Shown here: piece after piece, positions 2,887 through 61,982 of the stretch
Layout of the letters: every line of letters begins with the position of its first letter
How positions within the stretch are numbered: the stretch's first letter is position 1
DNA from: a virus
Taxonomy: Duplodnaviria; Heunggongvirae; Uroviricota; Caudoviricetes
Strand: one strand, 5' to 3'
IMG/VR virus record: IMGVR_UViG_3300045988_138358
DNA: 64,000 nt
Position numbers and translations under genes: made by a program
Notes under the pieces: model-generated
The model's database searches: none
Told to the model about the DNA's origin: nothing
What the model saw: the letters and a program-made list of their open reading frames with translations, nothing else

Positions 2887-4317
2887 TTACGGGTAAGAAA
2901 TGCTGAACGTTGAAGATTTCACGTCAAGATAAATGAAGTCATTAAAGTAAACAGCATCTTTCATATTTTGTATTGTTATGTCGTAAGACAGAAACATATC
3001 CAGAGACTCTATTACTCGCCAAATATCTTTGACTTTTACCTGCGCATAGCATTGCTGGGAATCATCATCACTCTGTAGCAATAAACTGAACGAGGACGAA
3101 TCACGCCCAAAATTATCTTCCAACGCGGCTTTAATGGCATTTTTAGCATCGTCTATCAGAACACTTTTACGTGCAATGCCAGTAAAATTTATCGTAAAAG
3201 GCTGTTCATTTGTATCTACATACTCGAACCGCTTGTTCAGTTCATTTGGAACATTCTCCAGGGCTTTAAGTATTTCTGACTTAAGTTGCTCCTGGCTTAC
3301 GCCCGGCTTATGTCCACAAAAGAAAATCTTATTGATGTTACGCACATCAAATCCTGTTATTTTTTCTTGTAACGCTTCACCCCACACGTTCAGCCATGAC
3401 GTACCGTGTACCACGTTCTGGATGAATTGACGGTAATCACCGCCCCATACGACTTGTTCATCATATGCAACATAATACTGTGCGCGATTTCGGGTTTCTT
3501 CTGTGGTTTCCATGCCACCGCCGCCAGTAATGATCGAATCGGTTTTAAACTCCAAAGACTCTATGTATTGGGCAATATTTCCAGCTGGTTCTAACTTTTG
3601 TCCTTCAGCCAAAGTATAGTCGCCAAGGCTAGCCATAACATCAATTCTAACCTGACAACCTGCTGGCGGCATCATACCCATAGATCCGTCACCAAATTTA
3701 ACGCCAAGTTGTTCCGTTGGCTTATATGCCAATGAATAGTGCTTACTTTTGTCTCTGGACATTCGAAATAATGGGTTGTAGATCCATTTTTCTTCTACAC
3801 CATTTGTAATAACATAAACATCAAGGCTAGAGACTTCTTTTGTTAATTCTCTGGAAAGCAACAACGTCAGGAATAGCGTTTCCTTTTCAATATCAAATGT
3901 AACGCTTACGGCTTCGTGCTGTTTGACTTCTACACCAGAAACAGTTTTTCCAGCAGGAACAACCACACTGTTAATAATTGCTAAAGGAGTTTGGTCGCTA
4001 GCAAGCAATTCTGCCCCGGCTGGTAACGTAATATCCCGATCAGTTTTATTGGTTATCGACGTTGTTCCGTATGAAGCACTAACAAATCGTCCTACGTAGC
4101 TACGGTCTTCAGCAACCGCCAAAATACTTGACCGGCGCGTAGCTGTTGAAATAAGCCCCTCAGTAAGACCACGACTTGCAAATGTACGAGCAATATAAAT
4201 AAGCTGTGCTCCGAACACAGCGTGCATCTGCACAAACTGACTGTTTACAAATCGTGACCACCATGTATTTTCATTTAGCTTGGCGTTAAATTTGTCCAGT
4301 AATTCTGTAATGGTCAC
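2887..4317 (-). CDS. baseplate J-like protein
   Basis: ORF track 476 aa; directly follows and overlaps the gpW/gp25-like gene, the usual W-J order; assignment by size and position only. Confidence 0.4.
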   Translation of the reverse strand: MTITELLDKFNAKLNENTWWSRFVNSQFVQMHAVFGAQLIYIARTFASRGLTEGLISTATRRSSILAVAEDRSYVGRFVSASYGTTSITNKTDRDITLPAGAELLASDQTPLAIINSVVVPAGKTVSGVEVKQHEAVSVTFDIEKETLFLTLLLSRELTKEVSSLDVYVITNGVEEKWIYNPLFRMSRDKSKHYSLAYKPTEQLGVKFGDGSMGMMPPAGCQVRIDVMASLGDYTLAEGQKLEPAGNIAQYIESLEFKTDSIITGGGGMETTEETRNRAQYYVAYDEQVVWGGDYRQFIQNVVHGTSWLNVWGEALQEKITGFDVRNINKIFFCGHKPGVSQEQLKSEILKALENVPNELNKRFEYVDTNEQPFTINFTGIARKSVLIDDAKNAIKAALEDNFGRDSSSFSLLLQSDDDSQQCYAQVKVKDIWRVIESLDMFLSYDITIQNMKDAVYFNDFIYLDVKSSTFSISYP

Positions 4318-44636: not shown

Positions 44637-44930
44637 ATGTGGCGCGGTAATAATCATGGTGGAAGCCAGATGATACTTACCGAATATCAGCTCGACCACA
44701 AAACCAATAAATCACGCTCAGTATATTTGCTTCGGCACAATAGCCGCGTAAGGAATACCGTGCTGGAGCAAAATCTGACCGTTGAAATGGATAATTCGGG
44801 GAACTTCAAGCCAACAATTTCGCTTGATGATTTTCCGCGTGGTTTAAGCGAAAGAGAAGCCATGCTGAAATTAGCAGAATGGCTTCAGAGGTTAAGTATT
44901 GTTATTGAAGATAACTGGAGTCAACCATAA
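44637..44930 (+). CDS. hypothetical protein
   Basis: ORF track 97 aa. Confidence 0.3.
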   Translation: MWRGNNHGGSQMILTEYQLDHKTNKSRSVYLLRHNSRVRNTVLEQNLTVEMDNSGNFKPTISLDDFPRGLSEREAMLKLAEWLQRLSIVIEDNWSQP

Positions 44931-53516: not shown

Positions 53517-55025
53517 TCAAATATCCAGATCTGGCATTTCTACATCTGCAAGAACCTGATCGCGGAAGGTAGCCATTTCAGCGCCGATATCTTCATTAGC
53601 AGGAACATAGTCCACCAGCATTGTAAAGCAGTAGGTATCCCATCGGTCAGGTGATTTGATGTTCAGCTTTTGCCGCATGTGCTCCTTGCGCATCATCGCC
53701 ATCTTCCCTTCTTCATTAAGTAAAAAGGGGATTTTTGACGCTTGCTCTGCCGTTTTAGGGTCGCTGTCTATTCGCATACGACCTGACTTTATGGCATCAC
53801 GAGCCATAATATTTGCGTAGGCACGCTGGTTAACAAAACGCTCCTTGTCTTTGTTCGAAAACATGGGTTTCCCCCACCGAATCCGTACCGGATTAGCCCC
53901 ACGGCGCACCAGCTGCGCACAGGTATCTGAACCAAAACCGTCTGCGTCAACCGCGATTGTAATATTCGGGTATTTATCCGGCGTGCATTCGTTGTATATA
54001 AAGTCAGCAAAAGCCAGCGGGTCCATAGTCCCTGGCATTTCCATTACCTTAAAGTTAACAACACGCCGCTTTTCCCGGTGACCAGACACTTTACAGATAT
54101 TAAGAACTGACTTGTCTCGCCCGTTACCAACGTCAGCAGTAGCCACCCATCCCCAGTTTTTCTCCAACAACACCTTGCGCCGCGCAGCGCGATCGCATTC
54201 ATCACGACCAAGCAAATAGCCGTTAATCTCCCGAGGAAACTGACCAAGAACCTTGACCATGTACTCAATAGAATCGCGCCCGCCATATTCTAGGAGTTTC
54301 TGCCTGATGAATTGTGGTGTGACGAACGGTGATTCTTCTGAGTTAAGAACAATTGCTGTCCAGATCCCTTTCGGGTTGTCTGGGGTTTTAGCTTGAGAAT
54401 GGTGCGAATCGTAGAAATAACCACTTGGCCTTGTTGGCTGGGATAGCATCAACATTCGGTTATCTTCTTCAGTCAGAGCGCCAGTCATTACGCCGATCGC
54501 TTTATCAGATATACCTGATGCTTCATCCAGAATTAGAAGCAAATGTGCCGCGTGCTCCCCCGCCAGAGCTTCTTCGTTACCGAGTCGATAGCCTTTGCAG
54601 AGAACTTCCCAGATCCCCTTTCGAGAGCGTTCATAAAACATGGTGTCAGACAGGACAAAATAGGTCTGTAACCACCCATGACGCTTAACGGCATTCGCCC
54701 AATACTGTTTAACGTATTTGAATACACCTGTCTTAACCTGACCTATTTTGTTAGCAACAATGATGACACGGGCATCGGGGAACAGAATCAAATAAATCAG
54801 CAACAACATAGCCGTTAGCGACGATTTCCCTGTACCGTGACCAGAGGTAACAGTGGTTCTGCTCCCTTTTTGCTGTACGGACTGGATAATCTCCTGCTGC
54901 TGGTGGGAGGGAAACATCCCGAATATATCAACAACAGCCTGGGTAAAGTTGTAGCGGTATTTGATTACCATATCGCGCCAGCGTGGATCGCTGGTGACGC
55001 ATTTAATCTTGCGCCCACCAGCCAT
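53517..55025 (-). CDS. terminase large subunit (PacB-like)
   Basis: ORF track 502 aa; intact Walker A SGHGTGKS and Walker B ILDEAS; start overlaps upstream stop (TAATG). Confidence 0.8.
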   Translation of the reverse strand: MAGGRKIKCVTSDPRWRDMVIKYRYNFTQAVVDIFGMFPSHQQQEIIQSVQQKGSRTTVTSGHGTGKSSLTAMLLLIYLILFPDARVIIVANKIGQVKTGVFKYVKQYWANAVKRHGWLQTYFVLSDTMFYERSRKGIWEVLCKGYRLGNEEALAGEHAAHLLLILDEASGISDKAIGVMTGALTEEDNRMLMLSQPTRPSGYFYDSHHSQAKTPDNPKGIWTAIVLNSEESPFVTPQFIRQKLLEYGGRDSIEYMVKVLGQFPREINGYLLGRDECDRAARRKVLLEKNWGWVATADVGNGRDKSVLNICKVSGHREKRRVVNFKVMEMPGTMDPLAFADFIYNECTPDKYPNITIAVDADGFGSDTCAQLVRRGANPVRIRWGKPMFSNKDKERFVNQRAYANIMARDAIKSGRMRIDSDPKTAEQASKIPFLLNEEGKMAMMRKEHMRQKLNIKSPDRWDTYCFTMLVDYVPANEDIGAEMATFRDQVLADVEMPDLDI

Positions 55026-56886: not shown

Positions 56887-57279
56887 CTACCAGCGAGATA
56901 AGCGAACGACGTGTTTTACCTTAGCGATCCACTTACCACGTGAGTTATTAATTACGGCCTGCGCCACCTTTAAGCTGACTTCAAAATCAGCCTTACGACC
57001 ATCAGAATCCACCAGCGTTGCACCGTCTATTTCCGGCAGGCTTAAATAATCCTGTTCTACCTCTAATGGCATTGACGGCTCTCTGAATGGTGTCAATTGC
57101 CGAGCTTTCCAGATAAAGCGAACTCTCAATCCCCTATAAGCCATTACCATGTAGCCTGTTATCGTGCTCTTATGGCCTGCATCAGTACGCGCAGCATTAC
57201 ACGATACAATCTTACAGGTGACGATATTCCACTCCACGTTGGAGACTTCGTGAATGCTTAATTTTGTTGTCTCGTACAT
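56887..57279 (-). CDS. hypothetical protein
   Basis: ORF track 130 aa. Confidence 0.3.
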   Translation of the reverse strand: MYETTKLSIHEVSNVEWNIVTCKIVSCNAARTDAGHKSTITGYMVMAYRGLRVRFIWKARQLTPFREPSMPLEVEQDYLSLPEIDGATLVDSDGRKADFEVSLKVAQAVINNSRGKWIAKVKHVVRLSRW

Positions 57280-57854
57280 CAGAATGCCTCCCAGTCAGTT
57301 GCGATAATATCCACGCCAGTTGCGAACCAGTCTGTCTGCGCCTGTAAATCCCCATTCATCATTACCAGGCGAGGCATAACCATCACATCGCACCCTTCCA
57401 CAATATCGAATGCCTCTTCCGGCAAGAATTCGAAGAGCTTTTCTTTGCTGCCAATGCTGCCACGGAACATCGATAAATAGCTCCCTTTAGGCCATGATGC
57501 CCGGCGGGCATCCAGCCCCTTCATCATCCAGAACATGGCGGCAGAAAAATTGATGTTCTTTTTGGCGATGAAAACATTATTGGCTTCTGTTTGCTTCAGA
57601 AACTTAATTAGCCTTGCCATCGACTCGGATAACGCTACGTATGGCTCATGATTGGCTGCGGACACGCTCACACCATGTAATCCAACACTGACTACCGTCA
57701 TATCGCCGCTTTGAGCGGTTTCAATGTTGACACCTTTGCGAACTAACGAGGCATAAAGTTCCTCTCGCTTTTGTGTCCAGCGTTCCCGCTGACCGATGAA
57801 GTCACTCAATATGAGGTCTGCTTCTGCATACGCGTTATCGTTCGCCGTTAACAT
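57279..57854 (-). CDS. fusion protein with C-terminal DUF2829-like (Tad2-like) domain, more divergent
   Basis: ORF track 191 aa; C-terminal half (AAMFWMMKGLDARRASWPKG .. PRLVMMNGDLQAQTDWFATGVDIIATDWEAF) follows the same pattern. Confidence 0.4.
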   Translation of the reverse strand: MLTANDNAYAEADLILSDFIGQRERWTQKREELYASLVRKGVNIETAQSGDMTVVSVGLHGVSVSAANHEPYVALSESMARLIKFLKQTEANNVFIAKKNINFSAAMFWMMKGLDARRASWPKGSYLSMFRGSIGSKEKLFEFLPEEAFDIVEGCDVMVMPRLVMMNGDLQAQTDWFATGVDIIATDWEAF

Positions 57855-57989: not shown

Positions 57990-58307
57990 TGCCAGGTTAG
58001 CCACTCCTGGCGACGTCACTTATCAGAACGTAGTGAATGAAAATGGCTTCGTCACGAGCGCATAGCCGCAATTACCACAACGGAAACGGCGCTCACGCTA
58101 ATTAAACGCCTTTTCCTGTTGTGCGCCGTACTCTTCCGGCTGTCACACCGAATCGCCAGGGTGGTGAGTCCTCGGTCCGACGATATGAACGGGGCTTGCA
58201 CATTCCGGCTACCTGGTTTGTTGCCTGAGCTAGGGGAAAAGGTAACCCCTTTAACGTCACCAGACCGCTAACGACGCATGTGCCATACGCCGTGTTACAA
58301 CCAAATA

Positions 58308-58383
58308 TGGTGGCCCCTACCGGACTTGAACCGGTGACCGTGCGATTATGAGTCGCCAGCTCTAACCACTGAGCTAAAGGGCC
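58308..58383 (-). tRNA. tRNA with CAU anticodon (Ile2 lysidine-type or Met)
   Basis: Hand-folded cloverleaf, 7-bp acceptor stem, T-loop TTCAAGT, CCA encoded; close to E. coli ileX as I recall it. Confidence 0.75.
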
Positions 58384-58392
58384 AGATTACTG

Positions 58393-58521
58393 TTAATTCC
58401 GCTTACGCTTTTTGCCAGAACCGCGTAAGGCTTTTGCCGCTTGCTCGATCCCATATGCAACCACCAGCAGAAATAAAAATGTCCAACCAGGGTTCTTATC
58501 GGCAAAGGCCCAAAAATCCAT
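58393..58521 (-). CDS. small hydrophobic protein, 42 aa
   Basis: Hand-found; one hydrophobic helix and basic tail; ends 10 nt before the CAU tRNA. Confidence 0.25.
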   Translation of the reverse strand: MDFWAFADKNPGWTFLFLLVVAYGIEQAAKALRGSGKKRKRN

Positions 58522-58572
58522 CACTTGCAGCTACCTTTTAAGACAAAACGCCATTGCTGTTAGATTGCGGTG

Positions 58573-58587
58573 CCTGGTGCCTCCAGG
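58573..58587. ncRNA. short hairpin CCTGG-TGCCT-CCAGG
   Basis: Second of three hairpins with identical loop and covarying stems. Confidence 0.3.
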
Positions 58588-58795
58588 TGACGTTAACCAG
58601 TTAACAATTAACGCCGGGATGTTTGATTTAACCACTAAGGAGGATTGTTTTAACTGTTCCGCGTGCGCTTAGCCGCATTCACCGCAATGGTAAGAGCACT
58701 TGGCTGGCTGGGCGGCGATGACGCCTGTACGCATTTGGTGATCCGGTTCTGCTTCCGGCATTCGCTTAATTAGCCAAATACTCTTAACGTTGCGC

Positions 58796-58882
58796 TGGCG
58801 GAGAGTAATGGAATCGAACCATCATCGCTTGCGCAATGGGACGGTTTTCAAGACCGCTTGAGCACCATGCTCCCTACTCTCC
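58796..58882 (-). tRNA. tRNA-Ser-like (UGA anticodon, long variable arm), divergent
   Basis: Hand-folded: 7-bp acceptor stem, anticodon loop CTTGAAA, long variable arm, T-loop TTCGATT, discriminator G, CCA encoded; D-arm unusual. Confidence 0.55.
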
Positions 58883-59028
58883 GGCCGTTGTGGTGGCCGG
58901 TACTGAATCTCCGGCATACGGTGCAGCCAATTAGGACTACGGACGATCACCGCTCGCGAAAGGGAAGATTTGCGGCCGCATTTCCCTAACATCCAAGAAA
59001 GCTATCGCATCAGTCTGCGAATCCACCA

Positions 59029-59118
59029 CAACGTTGAGAACACTGGTTGTCACGCTGCAACGCAACATTTATTCGTAGATTGGGATATGACCCCGTTACG
59101 TCAGTGTTCTCAACGTTG
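59029..59118. ncRNA. long hairpin: perfect 17-bp inverted repeats around a 56-nt interior
   Basis: Arms at 59029-59045 and 59102-59118 are exact reverse complements. Confidence 0.4.
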
Positions 59119-59265
59119 TAGTACCGGTTACGGTTCCGGCCAGGCCTCTTCCTCAACGGGGTATTCTCCATACGGACTACCGTTTATTGGTCGTTCCTGC
59201 GGTTTATGTTGTGAAGCCAGATGCTTATCTTCTGGTTGCTTCAAAGAGCTGCACTTCATCACAAC

Positions 59266-59339
59266 GGTAAGGGTACTTCGTAGGGATTCGAACCCTCTGC
59301 CAAGCACGGCGATCTCCGACGTCGCAAAATACCCTTACC
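59266..59339 (-). ncRNA. tRNA-like element: 10-bp closing stem around a canonical T-arm, no canonical cloverleaf
   Basis: Closing stem GGTAAGGGTA/TACCCTTACC with internal T-arm-like hairpin; I could not fold it as a standard tRNA. Confidence 0.35.
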
Positions 59340-59347
59340 TGTTGTGT

Positions 59348-59423
59348 TGGTGCCGATTAACGGACTCGAACCGCTGACATCCTGCTTACAAGGCAGGCGC
59401 TCTACCAACTGAGCTAAACCGGC
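59348..59423 (-). tRNA. tRNA-Thr (UGU)
   Basis: Hand-folded cloverleaf; anticodon loop CTTGTAA; T-loop TTCGAGT; CCA encoded. Confidence 0.75.
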
Positions 59424-59425
59424 AT

Positions 59426-59502
59426 TGGCGATGGTGGGTGGATTCGAACCACCGACCGACAGCTTAGAAGGCTGCTGCTCTATCCTACTGAGCTACACCA
59501 TC
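59426..59502 (-). tRNA. tRNA-Arg (UCU)
   Basis: Hand-folded cloverleaf; perfect 7-bp acceptor stem; anticodon loop CTTCTAA; 2 nt from tRNA-Thr. Confidence 0.75.
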
Positions 59503-60005
59503 ACTTGCCGGTTACGTCTCCGGCGAGGGCTTCCACCTCCGTATGCTTTTCGGCGCACCGCGCCCTGGCTGCAATTCGGTAACAGGGGATGCACAACCCT
59601 GGCTTCCAGCGTGATTAGCGCCTTCAGCATGACGGGATATACCCGTAACCAACAAACTTTCCCATATACCATCAAACAATGGCTGTTACGCGGGAGGGAC
59701 GTAACAGGTAAGGGCGCTGACCAGAAAGACCTGACCCTTCTCATTCATCTGGTTAATCACACCAGCGCCCTTGCCTGTTATGCCTCCCCGTTCCCTAATA
59801 CACAGACGGGGACACTCTGCGGTCGATTTTTTGACGGGGGACGACTCATACCCCGTGGCGTCTGGCTTCTTAGGCCGCTACCATCATCAGATCATCGTTT
59901 GCATTTACTTTAATGGTCGGTTTCTAAACCGCCGCAAAGCCGCTAACCATGACGAAAACCCTAAAAAAGCCCACCCGAAGATGGGCAAATACGCTACATC
60001 TCACA

Positions 60006-60084
60006 CAAGAAAGAAGCCGACTGCCTGAGCTGGATTCACTTTCAAATGCCCGCAGAAAGGGAACACAAGTCGGCTTCTTTCTTG
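60006..60084. ncRNA. long hairpin: perfect 17-bp inverted repeats around a 45-nt interior
   Basis: Arms at 60006-60022 and 60068-60084. Confidence 0.4.
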
Positions 60085-60212
60085 ATGCGGCACTCTCTCC
60101 GCCCGTCACCGCTCTGTCTCGGTTGTCGCGTTTGCCACGCCAGCCATAACGAGGTTTAAAGTCTTTGCACGTTTCCATCACTCGACTGCCGTCTGTGGCT
60201 GTTCGTTGCAGC

Positions 60213-60227
60213 GGGGGTGCCTCCCCC
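60213..60227. ncRNA. short hairpin GGGGG-TGCCT-CCCCC
   Basis: Third of three hairpins with identical loop and covarying stems. Confidence 0.3.
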
Positions 60228-60300
60228 TGGGGATATCCCCGGCCTTACCCCATTCTTTCAAGACACAATGCAAGGCCGCATCCGCATAGGTGCATTACCG

Positions 60301-60367
60301 CAACATTAAGGAGACTTAGGGCAAAAGGTAATCGCCACAAAAAAATCCCTATGCCTCCTTAATGTTG
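60301..60367. ncRNA. long hairpin: 13-bp perfect inverted repeats, 41-nt interior with nested TAGGG/CCCTA pairing
   Basis: Seen directly. Confidence 0.35.
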
Positions 60368-60375
60368 AGGATGTG

Positions 60376-60434
60376 CATTGATGATGATTCGATGCGGCGA
60401 GTCCCGTTACTCTCTGCCGGACCATCATCAATGA
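60376..60434. ncRNA. hairpin: 11-bp perfect inverted repeats (CATTGATGATG / CATCATCAATG), 37-nt interior
   Basis: Seen directly. Confidence 0.35.
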
Positions 60435-60576
60435 ACATCTTAAAAAGACCTTCCGTGGCTCAACATGTCTTGTCGTTTACTCCGTAAAGTGCTCTCTCTG
60501 AAACCACTTTACGCACTAAACCTGCTGAACTTTGGCTTGCTCGGTGCCAAAGCGAATCCCTGTATGCATGTAATTT

Positions 60577-60584
60577 TCTAACAC
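60577..60584. promoter_or_regulatory. operator-like half-site TCTAACAC in the tRNA island
   Basis: Recurrent motif. Confidence 0.35.
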
Positions 60585-60709
60585 TTTAATTTGTTATTTG
60601 CTGGTGGGCGAACAACAACCAATAAGTGACTATCAAGCCCAGCAAGCGAAATGTGGCAACGCTCCACCAGCAAGGAAAATTCTAAGTTAAGTTACTCTCA
60701 CAATCAATA

Positions 60710-60740
60710 TGTTCGTTTGGTGAAATTAGATTTCTAACAC
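60710..60740. promoter_or_regulatory. operator-like degenerate palindrome (TGTTCGT-N16-TCTAACAC) at the 3' end of the 60742 gene
   Basis: Recurrent motif. Confidence 0.4.
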
Positions 60741-60741
60741 A

Positions 60742-61950
60742 TTATTTCCCATAAAGATCTTCTACGCCCCCATTCTTCTTGTCCCATTCGTTAGCCCACA
60801 CCCGGCAGGCATCAATAATTTCTTGACGACGGTCGCCCTGCATAAAGGGGATGCTTTCATGAAAACTACTTGGGATACAGGCCACGCTGAATACGGTATC
60901 AAACGCAGTCTGTTTGATAGCTTCCAACGTCTCTGGGCGCATTTTCAATTCATCGATCGGCGCATCCTTAGAGTCCATAATCCGGCGATGCAGGCGCGGG
61001 AAATCAGTCTCCAGGTACGCCATAATTTTATCTGCCAGGCATTCGTCTATATCGGTATTCCAGTCCGTTTCGAAGCCGGGCAGGCGATAGTAAAGCGGCG
61101 TTCCCCATACTGATGGGATCACATCCATCGTCAGCAGGCGGTTGGTTCTAATTTGTTGATGGTAATTAGCCGTCAACAGAGCTTCACCACGCTGACCAGT
61201 CTCCGCAACCAGACCATGCGGGTACTCATGGATATAGGCAATAGCATCCACCCCGTCATACATGAGCGGGAATGTCTCTGGCCTTTGTCCCATACCACAA
61301 GCGCGGTTCAGATCATGACCAAGCTGTGAGCACTCTCGTTTCAGCGTTTCAATAATGTTCTGCGCTGCTGCTAACTTTTTACGCAGTGTGACGCCTTCGC
61401 CTTGATACTTAATGCATTGCTGATTCAGCTCTGTTAAACGCTCTTTTAGTTCCCGACGCTCTCTTTTCAGCGCACGGTTATCCTTCTCCGCAACATCCAG
61501 TCGTTTTGACAGACTGGCTGGATAGTCTTTTTTGTAACGACTCAAATCGGCTTCTGCGGATTTGCGCAGTGTGTTTGCCTGTTCAAGACGCGCTTCCAGA
61601 TTGCCGATCTCACTACGCATATTCGCGGCAAATTGATTAACAGCATTGCCAAGACTTTCAACTGTCGCTGATACGCCTGTGACTTGTGAAAAACGGATCA
61701 AGCCATCATTAACGGCTTGTTGATATTCCTCAAACTGATCCACCAGCTTGTTGTAATCAACCGTCCCTTCCTCAAGTAGCTGGTTGATCTCCGCGACCAG
61801 GTTATCAGTAGTGGCAATGACGCTCTCATGTAGCCGTCTAGACAGGTCATCCCCCGGATTCCGCTTTTGAATAAGGGCGATCTGTGTCCGCAGCGTTTCA
61901 ATCGCGGCTGAGATGATTTCCAGATTAGAAGTATCAGTTTGTTGACTCAT
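60742..61950 (-). CDS. hypothetical protein, N-terminal coiled coil plus C-terminal globular domain
   Basis: ORF track 60742-61962; the second ATG at 61950 has a better RBS. Confidence 0.4.
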   Translation of the reverse strand: MSQQTDTSNLEIISAAIETLRTQIALIQKRNPGDDLSRRLHESVIATTDNLVAEINQLLEEGTVDYNKLVDQFEEYQQAVNDGLIRFSQVTGVSATVESLGNAVNQFAANMRSEIGNLEARLEQANTLRKSAEADLSRYKKDYPASLSKRLDVAEKDNRALKRERRELKERLTELNQQCIKYQGEGVTLRKKLAAAQNIIETLKRECSQLGHDLNRACGMGQRPETFPLMYDGVDAIAYIHEYPHGLVAETGQRGEALLTANYHQQIRTNRLLTMDVIPSVWGTPLYYRLPGFETDWNTDIDECLADKIMAYLETDFPRLHRRIMDSKDAPIDELKMRPETLEAIKQTAFDTVFSVACIPSSFHESIPFMQGDRRQEIIDACRVWANEWDKKNGGVEDLYGK

Positions 61951-61982
61951 TGCAGTTCCCATTGTTTTTGCAAAATTAGTTT

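Follow-up and report, generated by a model that had tools for sequence, protein, structure and literature searches.

The locus considered here raises the question of what four long inverted repeats, crowded together in phage DNA that carries no credible open reading frames, might be. The window analysed (by which we mean the whole stretch of 64,000 nucleotides) belongs by sequence comparison to a P1-like phage or plasmid whose nearest relative is phage D6, with the hairpin-bearing stretch showing 96% identity to D6 and only partial homology to P1 and P7. The repeats, read as minus-strand hairpins, sit in a 2.7 kb interval (58000-60740) in which no credible ORF was found, and co-oriented protein-coding genes follow downstream at 57279-57854 and onward. 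This interval is the counterpart of the repressor-controlled ban-operon leader of P1, in whose annotation the C1-controlled promoter Pban/Op72 is followed by tRNAs and then by ban, and Pban/Op72 occupies the place corresponding to the candidate promoter that we find in the window. That promoter is flanked by conserved repeats which look like repressor operators, an intrinsic terminator ends the 5' part of the leader and marks the limit of P1/D6 homology, and four tRNA genes alternate with hairpins across 58308..59502 on the minus strand. The landmarks of the leader are as follows.

60731-60747 and 60575-60591, conserved TGTTAGAAA repeats flanking the leader promoter (invariant alignment columns)
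60679..60707, minus strand, candidate sigma-70-like promoter of the leader (TTGATT-17-TAGAAT; promoter scan)
59963..59986, minus strand, intrinsic terminator, GCCCAUCUUCGGGUGGGC then U6 (terminator scan; kept in P1)
59426-59502, minus strand, tRNA Arg(UCU) (ARAGORN / Rfam RF00005)
59348-59423, minus strand, tRNA Thr(UGU) (ARAGORN / Rfam RF00005)
58796-58882, minus strand, tRNA Ser(UGA) (ARAGORN / Rfam RF00005)
58566..58686, minus strand, STnc100-like sRNA module (Rfam RF02076, 39.4 bits, E 2e-7; gathering score 47)
58308-58383, minus strand, tRNA Met/Ile2-type(CAU) (ARAGORN / Rfam RF00005)

Folding covers this leader nearly end to end with strong structures. What had passed for 2.7 kb of 'empty' DNA is on this analysis a noncoding operon with closely packed elements.

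A census of exact inverted repeats over all 64 kb (arms of at least 11 bp, gap 20-90 nt) returned five, four of which fall within 1.4 kb. It placed every one of the four hairpins of the preliminary description within 1 nt of the coordinates given there, the only corrections being that the first stem is 18 rather than 17 bp and that the last 3' arm starts at 60423 rather than 60424. The exact arms lie at 59028-59045/59102-59119 (hairpin 1, 18 bp, gap 56 nt), 60006-60022/60068-60084 (hairpin 2, 17 bp, gap 45 nt), 60301-60313/60355-60367 (hairpin 3, 13 bp, gap 41 nt) and 60376-60386/60423-60433 (hairpin 4, 11 bp, gap 36 nt). Second-order Markov simulations (n = 100) gave mean counts of 1.19 for arms of at least 11 bp, 0.06 for at least 13 bp and 0 for at least 17 bp. 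Three of the four repeats are far beyond chance, as had been claimed of them all, whereas the 11-bp core alone is compatible with chance, though it lies inside an imperfect 27-nt arm. Once mismatches and G-U pairs are allowed the stem arms lengthen to 21-45 nt, and the minus-strand RNA folds of hairpins 1-4 have z-scores of -6.9, -5.6, -6.0 and -3.8.

60365..60444, minus strand, hairpin 4 (E1), 11-bp exact core with imperfect 27-nt arms
60277..60391, minus strand, hairpin 3 (E2), 13-bp exact core (60301-60367) in a stem of ~30 bp with internal loops
60001..60089, minus strand, hairpin 2 (E3), 17-bp perfect stem (~21 bp extended) with a conserved inner hairpin
59022..59125, minus strand, hairpin 1 (E6), 22-bp stem (18 bp exact) around a two-hairpin insert

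Hairpin 2 stands 20 nt upstream of the intrinsic terminator. Hairpins 3 and 4 share sequence, the 3' arm of the latter running into the outer 5' strand of the former, and these two are therefore alternative or stacked structures; hairpins 2, 3 and 4 are retained when the whole 716-nt leader is folded (z -4.5). At least five more long hairpins were seen in the same stretch, at 59693-59789, 59255-59347, 58678-58795, 58071-58124 and 60475-60521.

On sequence grounds hairpin 1 is a diverged member of a family of lambda-type 'frame hairpins' that is widespread in Enterobacterales phages. The family layout is a nearly invariant 18-bp frame stem enclosing a hypervariable insert of 35-60 nt, the 18 pairs of the frame reading CACAAC-A-GG-U-AAGAGCAUUG ... 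CAGUGCUCUU-U-CC-GUUGUG. A covariance model of it (R1), built in this analysis from 25 distinct copies, matches hairpin 1 with 39.2 bits on the minus strand (E 6e-9, whole window) and 30.0 bits on the plus strand. The frame pairs of hairpin 1 are preserved through compensatory changes (GUUGAGAACACUG / CAGUGUUCUCAAC), its flank GUUGUGGUGGAU stands where the family has a conserved 3' flank GUUGUGGUGAAU, and its sense strand is the minus strand, the same as that of the tRNAs. The hairpin is found in P1, P7, D6 and L005 and as a module is missing from L004 and L006. Across the 64 kb the R1 matches are confined to 58071-59787, where besides hairpin 1 they include the following.

59693..59789, minus strand (strand ambiguous in R1), frame hairpin E4 with 27-nt arms, common to P1, 28-33 bits
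59255..59347, minus strand, frame hairpin E5, top R1 score in the window (60.1 bits, E 6.5e-15)
58678..58795, minus strand, frame hairpin E7, directly 3' of tRNA-Ser, 32.2 bits
58071..58124, minus strand, frame hairpin nearly without an insert (4 unaligned nt), 40.8 bits

E5 begins directly 3' of the tRNA-Thr CCA and holds a tRNA T-arm (AGGGUUCGAAUCCCU) in its insert, while the insert of E7 is homologous to the segment of the lambda late leader that lies 3' of the frame hairpin there. R1 gave 210 matches in ~100 phage or prophage loci, frequently in arrays. In a scan of a genome collection, some of the matches came from lambda DNA contaminating assemblies of other origin. Double changes occur in 14 of the 18 frame pairs and 97.5% of cells are paired, values reached by 0 of 500 shuffles, with slid controls 35-59% paired. 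No Rfam 15 family matched the frame hairpins.

A coding explanation exists for hairpin 1, namely that it lies within a plus-strand gene (the putative lipoprotein gene 'plp' of P1, corresponding to window ORF 58970-59377) and that the repeat is incidental. The gene is annotated in P1 over the homologous region, and the window has an open frame of 135 aa; however, Pfam matches neither this window ORF nor P1 Plp, tRNA-Thr and two opposite-strand elements backed by the covariance model lie within the span of the ORF or overlap it, the module is missing from the close relatives L004 and L006, and the gene tables of related plasmids (PLSDB tables, which are incomplete) hold no CDS there. We regard this reading as highly improbable and rejected it for the hairpin 1 region, which removes a doubtful plp-like ORF call from the window.

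Hairpins 2, 3 and 4 are by the same model not members of the frame family. With filters off over 59800-60760, R1 scored hairpin 3 at 12 bits (E 0.006 in this ~1-kb search, a weak match) and hairpin 2 at 7.8-9.7 bits, and hairpin 4 had no match. Hairpin 3 has the 5' arm UUAAGGAGG and a 3' flank, GUUGCGGUAAUG, similar to that of the frame hairpins. These three hairpins are confined to the D6 lineage. A search with hairpin 2 matched only D6-like contigs, apart from chance matches, and the pattern used for hairpin 3 against viral contigs (AAGGAGGC...GUCUCCUU) was too loose, returning mostly chance SD-like matches. The four had been presented as one class, which does not hold, as only hairpin 1 belongs to a widespread family and the others are specific to the D6 lineage.

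Covariation across homologs had been proposed as the check on the RNA folds, and compensatory changes were indeed found in hairpins 1-3, with one only in hairpin 4. The alignment fold of hairpin 2 has 28 pairs, eight of them with compensatory changes, and its inner hairpin covaries too. Hairpin 3 folds into 35 pairs, among them a minus-strand G-U that does not vary, and 2 of the pairs show compensatory changes; such changes support hairpins 2 and 3 as RNA structures. The 22 pairs of hairpin 4 are mostly invariant, with compensatory change in 1 of 22 and a few broken, which makes it the least secure of the four.

The claim that these repeats are not half-sites for a protein is borne out in that they behave as RNA-level elements, lying in a noncoding operon that bears tRNAs, on the strand that is transcribed, with G-U wobbles on that strand and compensatory changes in the stems. 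A DNA-level role would instead make them attC-like recombination or integration sites, module-shuffling linkers or palindromic protein-binding sites. The mosaic breakpoints of relatives do fall at hairpin ends (59008, 59250, 58797/58922 and 60005), separate pieces match unrelated phages, and the frame ends CACAAC...GUUGUG, the bulge and the 80-100 bp size are as in attC; the frame hairpins share with attC sites and the PeSL stem-loops of T4-type phages an imperfect inverted repeat, a centre that varies and a position where modules of mosaic genomes meet. The AAC/GTT ends and bulges of attC are present, but the full core consensus RYYYAAC / GTTRRRY is unmatched. attC sites work as single-stranded DNA with an integrase, and no integron integrase was seen in the annotated neighbourhoods examined. 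The evidence of orientation and wobble favours RNA here: the family sense strand is co-oriented with the neighbouring ORFs in 58 of 69 loci, and a conserved U-G wobble on the sense strand of the frame would be C-A on the opposite strand. Copies are moreover found in transcribed leaders, one of them at an RNase III-dependent RNA end, the arms of the four hairpins are 36-56 bp apart with a variable spacing ill-suited to a dimeric DNA-binding protein, and shuffling at conserved arms may be a by-product of their sequence conservation. A function in DNA is on this evidence quite improbable.

The family copies in Qin and lambda are those that connect the hairpins to RNase III. The Qin copy (L132 3173-3262, K-12 1649172-1649261, R1 35.8 bits), a canonical one, lies upstream of dicF, and the 190-nt DicF species has a published RNase III-dependent 5' end (Faubladier et al. 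1990; bioRxiv 10.1101/2023.04.14.536235). We mapped that end to ~L132 3246, within the 3' arm of the Qin frame (3237-3258), a position deduced from a gel-sized '190 nt' and so with a possible error of several nt. The Qin hairpin has the family layout, in which a base of 6-7 bp is followed by a bulge, 2 bp, a mismatch and then an upper stem of 10 bp, and like the window copies it lies in an untranslated part of a repressor-controlled prophage operon with sRNA modules 3' of it. It differs from the window in that only hairpin 1 of the four shares the family and in that the window has tRNAs in place of DicF. The lambda copy (44788-44865, R1 67.6 bits), also canonical, immediately follows tR' in the late leader. 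By its title, Daniels et al. (1988) describes RNase III sites in the late, Q-dependent transcript of lambda, and the mapped sites may lie within the lambda frame hairpin. Lambda has a single copy in a late, Q-antiterminated leader, as opposed to the array that the window carries in an early, tRNA-bearing leader. Three elements formerly treated apart, namely the leader hairpin 3' of tR' in lambda, the RNase III site that precedes DicF in Qin and the tRNA leader of P1/D6, belong to one hairpin family with a constant frame and interchangeable inserts.

RNase III takes ~22 bp of dsRNA (PMC6212723). Against a criterion of ~20-22 bp, hairpin 1 offers 22 bp, hairpin 2 17 bp (~21 extended), hairpin 3 15 + 5 bp plus an outer helix and hairpin 4 a marginal 10 + 5 bp, and it is solely through this geometry that we infer a link between hairpins 2-4 and the enzyme. 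The frame carries a conserved A bulge and U-U mismatch. Recognition by RNase III is loose and bulges can block or redirect cleavage; these features are of the type able to do so.

Somewhat more probably than not, the four hairpins are RNA stem-loops, most likely RNA-processing sites cut by RNase III rather than elements of a novel type, in the untranslated early-operon leader of a D6/P1-like temperate phage. The leader of this operon, which is early and probably under a repressor, would be transcribed on the minus strand from ~60680 down to ~58000, giving a polycistronic noncoding RNA built of modules, namely long hairpins, the four tRNAs and sRNA-like domains. Host RNase III would cut the long stems (~17-22 contiguous bp, more with internal loops), splitting the transcript into units and freeing tRNA precursors with short trailers. 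The cuts would leave 5'-monophosphate ends, with RNase E and exonucleases completing maturation, and a cut at hairpin 2 would set the 5' end of a short RNA ending at the terminator at 59963. We infer both the cleavage of this phage's own hairpins, especially 2-4, and its consequences. The suggestion that the hairpins resemble processing substrates accordingly gains from the Qin member at a published RNase III-dependent end and from the lambda title as far as RNase III goes, while nothing points to the protein-capped substrates also named. A curated family model should improve phage and prophage annotation, and its members would make a collection of natural substrates for RNase III readily available.

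A passive role would dispense with specific cleavage, the hairpins merely compacting the long untranslated RNA. Rho would then be kept from loading and exonucleases would be halted, polymerase would reach the downstream genes and flanking RNA would be stabilised. That 2.7 kb go untranslated and yet are followed by co-oriented coding genes fits this, as do the strong structures tiling the stretch almost throughout and the presence of family members in other long untranslated leaders (lambda pR'-S, Qin ydfC-dicB). We nevertheless consider it rather unlikely, as such a role needs neither a 20-nt frame conserved across a bacterial order nor a conserved bulge and wobble, and in Qin an actual RNase III-dependent end falls at the family member.

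Cleavage by RNase III has parallels in other phages. Dunn and Studier reportedly described RNase III processing signals in the early mRNA of phage T7, and Pragai and Apirion are said to have described in 1981 RNase III processing in the tRNA cluster of T4, where the RNase III-cut transcript bears tRNAs and small stable RNAs. The likeness is in long imperfect hairpins that host RNase III cuts between the functional units of a phage polycistronic transcript; there is however no sequence similarity, and an internal loop is characteristic of the T7 sites, which lack a large structured insert. The c4 antisense RNA of P1/P7 (C4, RF01695) is processed by RNase P from a longer transcript. It too is a small structured RNA, closed by a long stem and with loops that are functional, and is excised from the transcript of a P1 operon, but it belongs to a separate operon, and the four window hairpins are without an acceptor-like end or CCA. 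C4 had no cmscan match in the window, even at E-values up to 10 in the hairpin region, and of the RNase P processing that had also been proposed nothing is suggested at the four hairpins.

STnc100 (RF02076) and PasD prophage sRNAs are a further point of comparison, with such modules lying directly 3' of frame hairpins in both the window and Qin. The match to the STnc100 model begins at the frame 3' flank GUGGUGAAU, and the module at 58566-58686 is near-identical to the Qin dicF-dicB spacer; the model matches none of the four hairpins, and that sole match falls below the gathering score.

Other identities were considered and rejected. The four hairpins are not listed in the terminator scan, their loops are 36-56 nt and no U tract lies 3' of any arm, which speaks against intrinsic terminators. 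ARAGORN and Rfam RF00005 find only the four tRNAs and none at the hairpins, setting aside tRNA and tmRNA. Rfam 15 (including C4, DicF, YrlA and STnc100) placed no family at the hairpins at gathering or permissive thresholds. Sub-threshold matches over them were to miRNA models (17-28 bits against a gathering score of 100, chance-level), which are artefacts because any long hairpin yields them, and to STnc240 (25 against 55). DicF itself was dropped, as the 'dicF-like region' of P1 matches the element upstream of dicF in K-12 Qin and not DicF; this element is missing from the window at the P1-equivalent spot and is inserted after hairpin 2 in L004-L006. The 3' arm UGCUCUUU, followed by a small hairpin, is similar to the boxA core of rrn and lambda. 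A boxA/nut role was dropped as UGCUCUUU is locked in a 20-bp stem and as the copies follow Q-dependent and C1-dependent promoters without an N-type system.

Processing alone leaves unaccounted for an invariant frame with hypervariable tRNA-arm-like inserts. The stems may instead be scaffolds, with the inserts functional, whether or not the hairpin is excised, as small structured RNA decoys or antisense RNAs, for example tRNA anticodon- or T-arm mimics soaking up tRNA-targeting host factors. This tentative possibility is compatible with release by RNase III and draws on the constancy of the frame against more than 40 different inserts in ~100 loci, on T-arm hairpins (GTTCGA) in at least seven insert classes, and on a sub-motif, AC-RGG-NNCAUWW-CCY-AAUC, whose closing stems covary. 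In certain copies the 14-mer CGGGCUCAUAACCC occurs, which is also found in the anticodon arm of the initiator tRNA of E. coli. The insert of hairpin 1 carries the anticodon-arm-like motif ACGGGGUCAUAUCCCAAUC with CAU, again with covarying closing stems and in the version GGG-GUCAUAU-CCC, and the covarying inner hairpin of hairpin 2 is in keeping with a functional insert. Many inserts however have no recognisable motif, the hairpin at 58071-58124 is almost insert-free, and inserts may be tolerated filler swapped by homologous recombination between conserved arms. Should the tRNA-arm-like inserts prove functional, the family would be a pointer to a new class of phage-encoded RNA decoys.

Speculatively, and with rather low probability, frame hairpins might serve temperate phages across Enterobacterales as a shared RNA 'display cassette' of modular build, in which an RNase III-cuttable stem presents and releases interchangeable 35-60-nt payloads acting as decoys for tRNA-targeting host factors or defences or as fast-pairing antisense loops. 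If this were true candidate targets would be anticodon nucleases such as VapC-type toxins, and P1-like tRNA/hairpin leaders would be more than spacers, namely RNA arrays with an anti-defence or regulatory role. In a neighbouring tRNA the anticodon arm is swapped from Asn to Arg with the remaining tRNA body unchanged, a swap that under a display cassette would follow the same logic.

The four perfect hairpins of the preliminary description, which were likened there to precursors of structured small RNAs or protein-capped processing substrates, were all recovered when the entire 64-kb window was searched for exact inverted repeats with arms of 11 bp or more and a gap of 20-90 nt, and they account for four of the five repeats of this type:

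59028-59045 / 59102-59119, minus strand, hairpin 1, arms of 18 bp, gap 56 nt
60006-60022 / 60068-60084, minus strand, hairpin 2, arms of 17 bp, gap 45 nt
60301-60313 / 60355-60367, minus strand, hairpin 3, arms of 13 bp, gap 41 nt
60376-60386 / 60423-60433, minus strand, hairpin 4, arms of 11 bp, gap 36 nt

Across 100 second-order Markov simulations, repeats with arms of 11 bp or longer occurred 1.19 times on average and those of 13 bp or longer 0.06 times, and none reached 17 bp. When mismatches are tolerated the arms of hairpins 1 to 4 measure 21, 17, 45 and 27 nt, with minus-strand RNA fold z-scores of -6.9, -5.6, -6.0 and -3.8 respectively, and additional long hairpins not listed previously are present within the same stretch. 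A terminator reading of the four hairpins failed in a terminator scan. The four hairpins are genuine, conserved RNA structures within a noncoding phage operon and are best read as putative RNase III processing stems, with hairpin 1 a member of a wider family and hairpins 2-4 its probable lineage-specific analogues; the earlier interpretation is supported in part. The fifth exact repeat, the sole other case in the window (54655-54666 / 54740-54751, 12 bp, 73 nt apart), lies within the pacB-like terminase region by comparison with D6.

The region 58000-60800 shares 96% identity with Escherichia phage D6 and partial homology with P1, P7 and many P1-like plasmids. Within it, an ORF-poor 2.7 kb is bounded by a pmgS-like gene (60742-61962) and a 191-aa gene (57279-57854), both on the minus strand, as are all recognisable genes in the interval. 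The leader features are as follows:

60707-60679, minus strand, sigma-70-like promoter with conserved TGTTAGAAA repeats on both sides
59986-59963, minus strand, intrinsic terminator, the start point of P1/D6 homology
59426-59502, minus strand, tRNA-Arg(UCU)
59348-59423, minus strand, tRNA-Thr
58796-58882, minus strand, tRNA-Ser(UGA)
58308-58383, minus strand, tRNA with anticodon CAU

According to the P1 annotation the homologous stretch is the ban-operon leader, in which the C1-controlled Pban (operator Op72) is followed by two tRNAs, tciABC, a third tRNA and ban. The repeats flanking the leader promoter in the window are 17 nt long (60731-60747 / 60575-60591; minus strand AAATAATGTGTTAGAAA / AATTAAAGTGTTAGAAA), their TGTTAGAAA core is invariant in all D6-like relatives, and they probably serve as operators of the D6-type immunity repressor, in the place that Op72 has in P1. 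The leader 5' end also carries a 10-bp long-range stem (60598-60607 / 60664-60673, UUGCUGGUGG...CCACCAGCAA), whose arms are invariant across relatives around a variable interior, and a conserved stem-loop with 22-nt arms and a 3-nt loop (60475-60521, minus strand).

Read on the minus strand, several hairpins in the window have arm sequences in common, with the family consensus 5'-CACAAC-A-GG-U-AAGAGCAUUG [35-60 nt] CAGUGCUCUU-U-CC-GUUGUGGUGAAU-3'. This frame has 6 bp at its base, followed by a bulged A, 2 bp, a U-U (or U-A) position and finally an upper stem of 10 bp with a conserved U-G wobble. Pattern matching in viral contigs found at least 120 loci; among the matches listed the whole frame is present in about 95 of 122 elements, enclosing dozens of mutually unrelated inserts. 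Clean copies in unrelated phages (Citrobacter phiNP, a Uetakevirus and a Sashavirus) are intergenic and have no tRNAs nearby. A covariance model (R1) was built from 25 copies with distinct inserts using frame pairs only as structure, and its matches in the whole window are confined to 58071-59787:

59255-59347, minus strand, hairpin E5, 60 bits
58071-58124, minus strand, frame-only element, 41 bits
59022-59121, minus strand, hairpin 1, 39 bits, E 6e-9
59695-59787, hairpin E4, 28-33 bits
58678-58795, minus strand, hairpin E7, 32 bits

R1 gave 210 matches across 100 sources, P1-like contigs often carrying three to five in series. Pairing holds for 97.5% of cells in the R1 alignment, which is fitted to the model itself, and double (compensatory) changes occur at 14 of the 18 pairs; the observed values were not reached in any of 500 shuffles, and slid controls were 35-59% paired. 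The wobble and bulge give the element a strand, and this strand is co-directional with adjacent ORFs in 58 of 69 loci, which points to an element acting at the RNA level. When one genome per species was scanned, exact frames were present in Serratia, Klebsiella, Pantoea, Kluyvera, Citrobacter, Erwinia, Enterobacter, Brenneria, Pectobacterium and others. In non-enteric assemblies, of Pseudomonas, Shewanella, Bacillus-like, Bradyrhizobium, Actinomycetes and others (L303, L304, L308, L310, L316, L317, L327, L334 and others), exact lambda-type copies spanning 64 nt lie on contigs of ~48.4-48.5 kb or on short contigs at coverage near 1, and are almost certainly phage lambda DNA contaminating public assemblies.

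Opposite hairpin 1 the P1 record annotates an ORF, plp (putative lipoprotein). A coding reading of this region fails, as plp had no Pfam match, overlaps tRNA-Thr and spans two R1-supported RNA elements. The plp ORF (58970-59377, plus strand, in the window), and probably also P1 upl, lies opposite a dense array of RNA elements and overlaps tRNA-Thr, and both are likely spurious ORF calls propagated into other phage records.

Hairpins 2-4 occupy the 700 nt that separate the promoter from the 59963 terminator, a segment specific to D6-like elements whose P1 counterpart is much shorter. They are not members of the frame-hairpin family: with filters off R1 scored hairpin 3 at 12 bits and hairpin 2 at 8-10 bits and did not match hairpin 4. 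The arms of hairpin 3 (UUAAGGAGGCAUAG / ...CUCCUUAAUGUUGCGGUAAUG) look like a diverged frame. The covariation proposed earlier as a check on the hairpins was assessed here in eight D6-like sequences of 74-99% identity. Compensatory changes affect 8 of 28 predicted pairs in hairpin 2, including its inner hairpin, and 2 of 35 in hairpin 3, which has one invariant G-U on the minus strand; the 22 pairs of hairpin 4 are for the most part invariant, with one compensatory and a few broken. The 3' arm of hairpin 4 overlaps the outer helix of hairpin 3, and a whole-leader fold of 716 nt (z -4.5) keeps hairpins 2-4 in both MFE and centroid structures. Matches to a hairpin 2 pattern are limited to D6-like contigs. 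Downstream of hairpin 2 come 20 nt of A/U-rich spacer and then the terminator, an order reminiscent, by position, of the Qin prophage layout of RNase III hairpin, spacer and terminator-ended DicF.

Phage lambda carries a canonical frame hairpin at 44788-44865 (R1 67.6 bits), in the untranslated late leader that precedes S, directly downstream of the 6S RNA terminator tR', and this layout recurs in a lambdoid prophage of UTI89. RNase III sites have been reported in the lambda Q-dependent late transcript (Daniels et al. 1988) and may include the hairpin at 44788-44865. Firmer evidence comes from the K-12 Qin locus (L132), where a copy at 3173-3262 (R1 35.8 bits) with the fold layout of the frame lies between ydfC and dicF. 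A DicF species of 190 nt owes its 5' end to RNase III and, in confirmation of earlier work, is lost without the enzyme; 53-nt DicF is then produced by RNase E (bioRxiv 10.1101/2023.04.14.536235). By the published length of 190 nt and the annotated 3' end of DicF (L132 3435), that 5' end falls at L132 3246, inside positions 3237-3258, which form the 3' arm of the frame hairpin. The frame stem also has the size, ~22 bp, of the dsRNA that RNase III accommodates (PMC6212723). A role at the DNA level, as attC-like sites or recombination linkers, would fit the mosaic breakpoints that fall at hairpin ends, but is opposed by strand orientation, the strand-specific wobble and this RNA-end evidence.

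With RNase III processing as the preferred reading, the early promoter would produce a long untranslated RNA whose long stems host RNase III may cut, splitting off tRNA precursors and sRNA-like modules. Such cuts would leave 5'-monophosphate ends favouring RNase E and exonuclease trimming, by analogy with the two-step maturation of DicF. The structures themselves, their conservation, the family assignment and the coincidence in Qin are observed; that this phage's stems are cut, and with what effects, is inferred. RNase III participates in processing of the T4 tRNA cluster and T7 early RNAs, so such a role here would not be unusual. As an extra benefit, passive structure that counters Rho or stabilises the RNA is plausible, but would not require conserved sequence.

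Processing alone does not explain a near-invariant frame around hypervariable inserts, and the most interesting by-products of the analysis are the family-level picture and inserts resembling tRNA arms. In at least seven classes, the insert includes a tRNA T-arm hairpin of the GGUUCGAAUCC type. Another group, including hairpin 1 (GGG-GUCAUAU-CCC), has the motif AC-RGG-NNCAUWW-CCY-AAUC closed by helices that differ in sequence with covarying pairs; in phiNP and two other contigs it includes CGGGCTCATAACCC, 14 nt identical to part of the anticodon arm in metY, an initiator tRNA of E. coli. That these inserts are a payload of functional mimics (decoys or antisense loops) seems rather unlikely, and they may be recombination debris from tRNA genes.

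An STnc100-like sRNA module (58566-58686, minus strand; Rfam RF02076, 39.4 bits, under the gathering score of 47) is near-identical to the dicF-dicB spacer of Qin. The P1 'dicF-like region' (L002 6309-6410) is ruled out as DicF itself, as it matches a structured element upstream of dicF (GGCGGUAAGUAUGGC...GACCAUACGC; L132 ~3277-3345), which interrupts the stretch from hairpin 2 to the terminator in the D6-like plasmids L004-L006 and is absent from the window. The tRNA-Ser(UGA) is an unusual long-arm tRNA, reaching 46.6 bits with the tRNA-Sec model of Rfam (gathering score 47) and staying below threshold on the general tRNA model; for its counterpart in the D6 record tRNAscan-SE would not assign an amino acid. 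Next to tRNA-Thr, the window and an E. fergusonii plasmid carry a tRNA for Arg(UCU), where D6, P1 and others carry one for Asn(GUU). These tRNAs have near-identical acceptor, D and T arms and differ in the anticodon arm alone (59426-59502 vs L001 5000-5075, L002 5778-5853 and L006 2022-2098), which suggests that the anticodon arm was exchanged on an otherwise constant tRNA.
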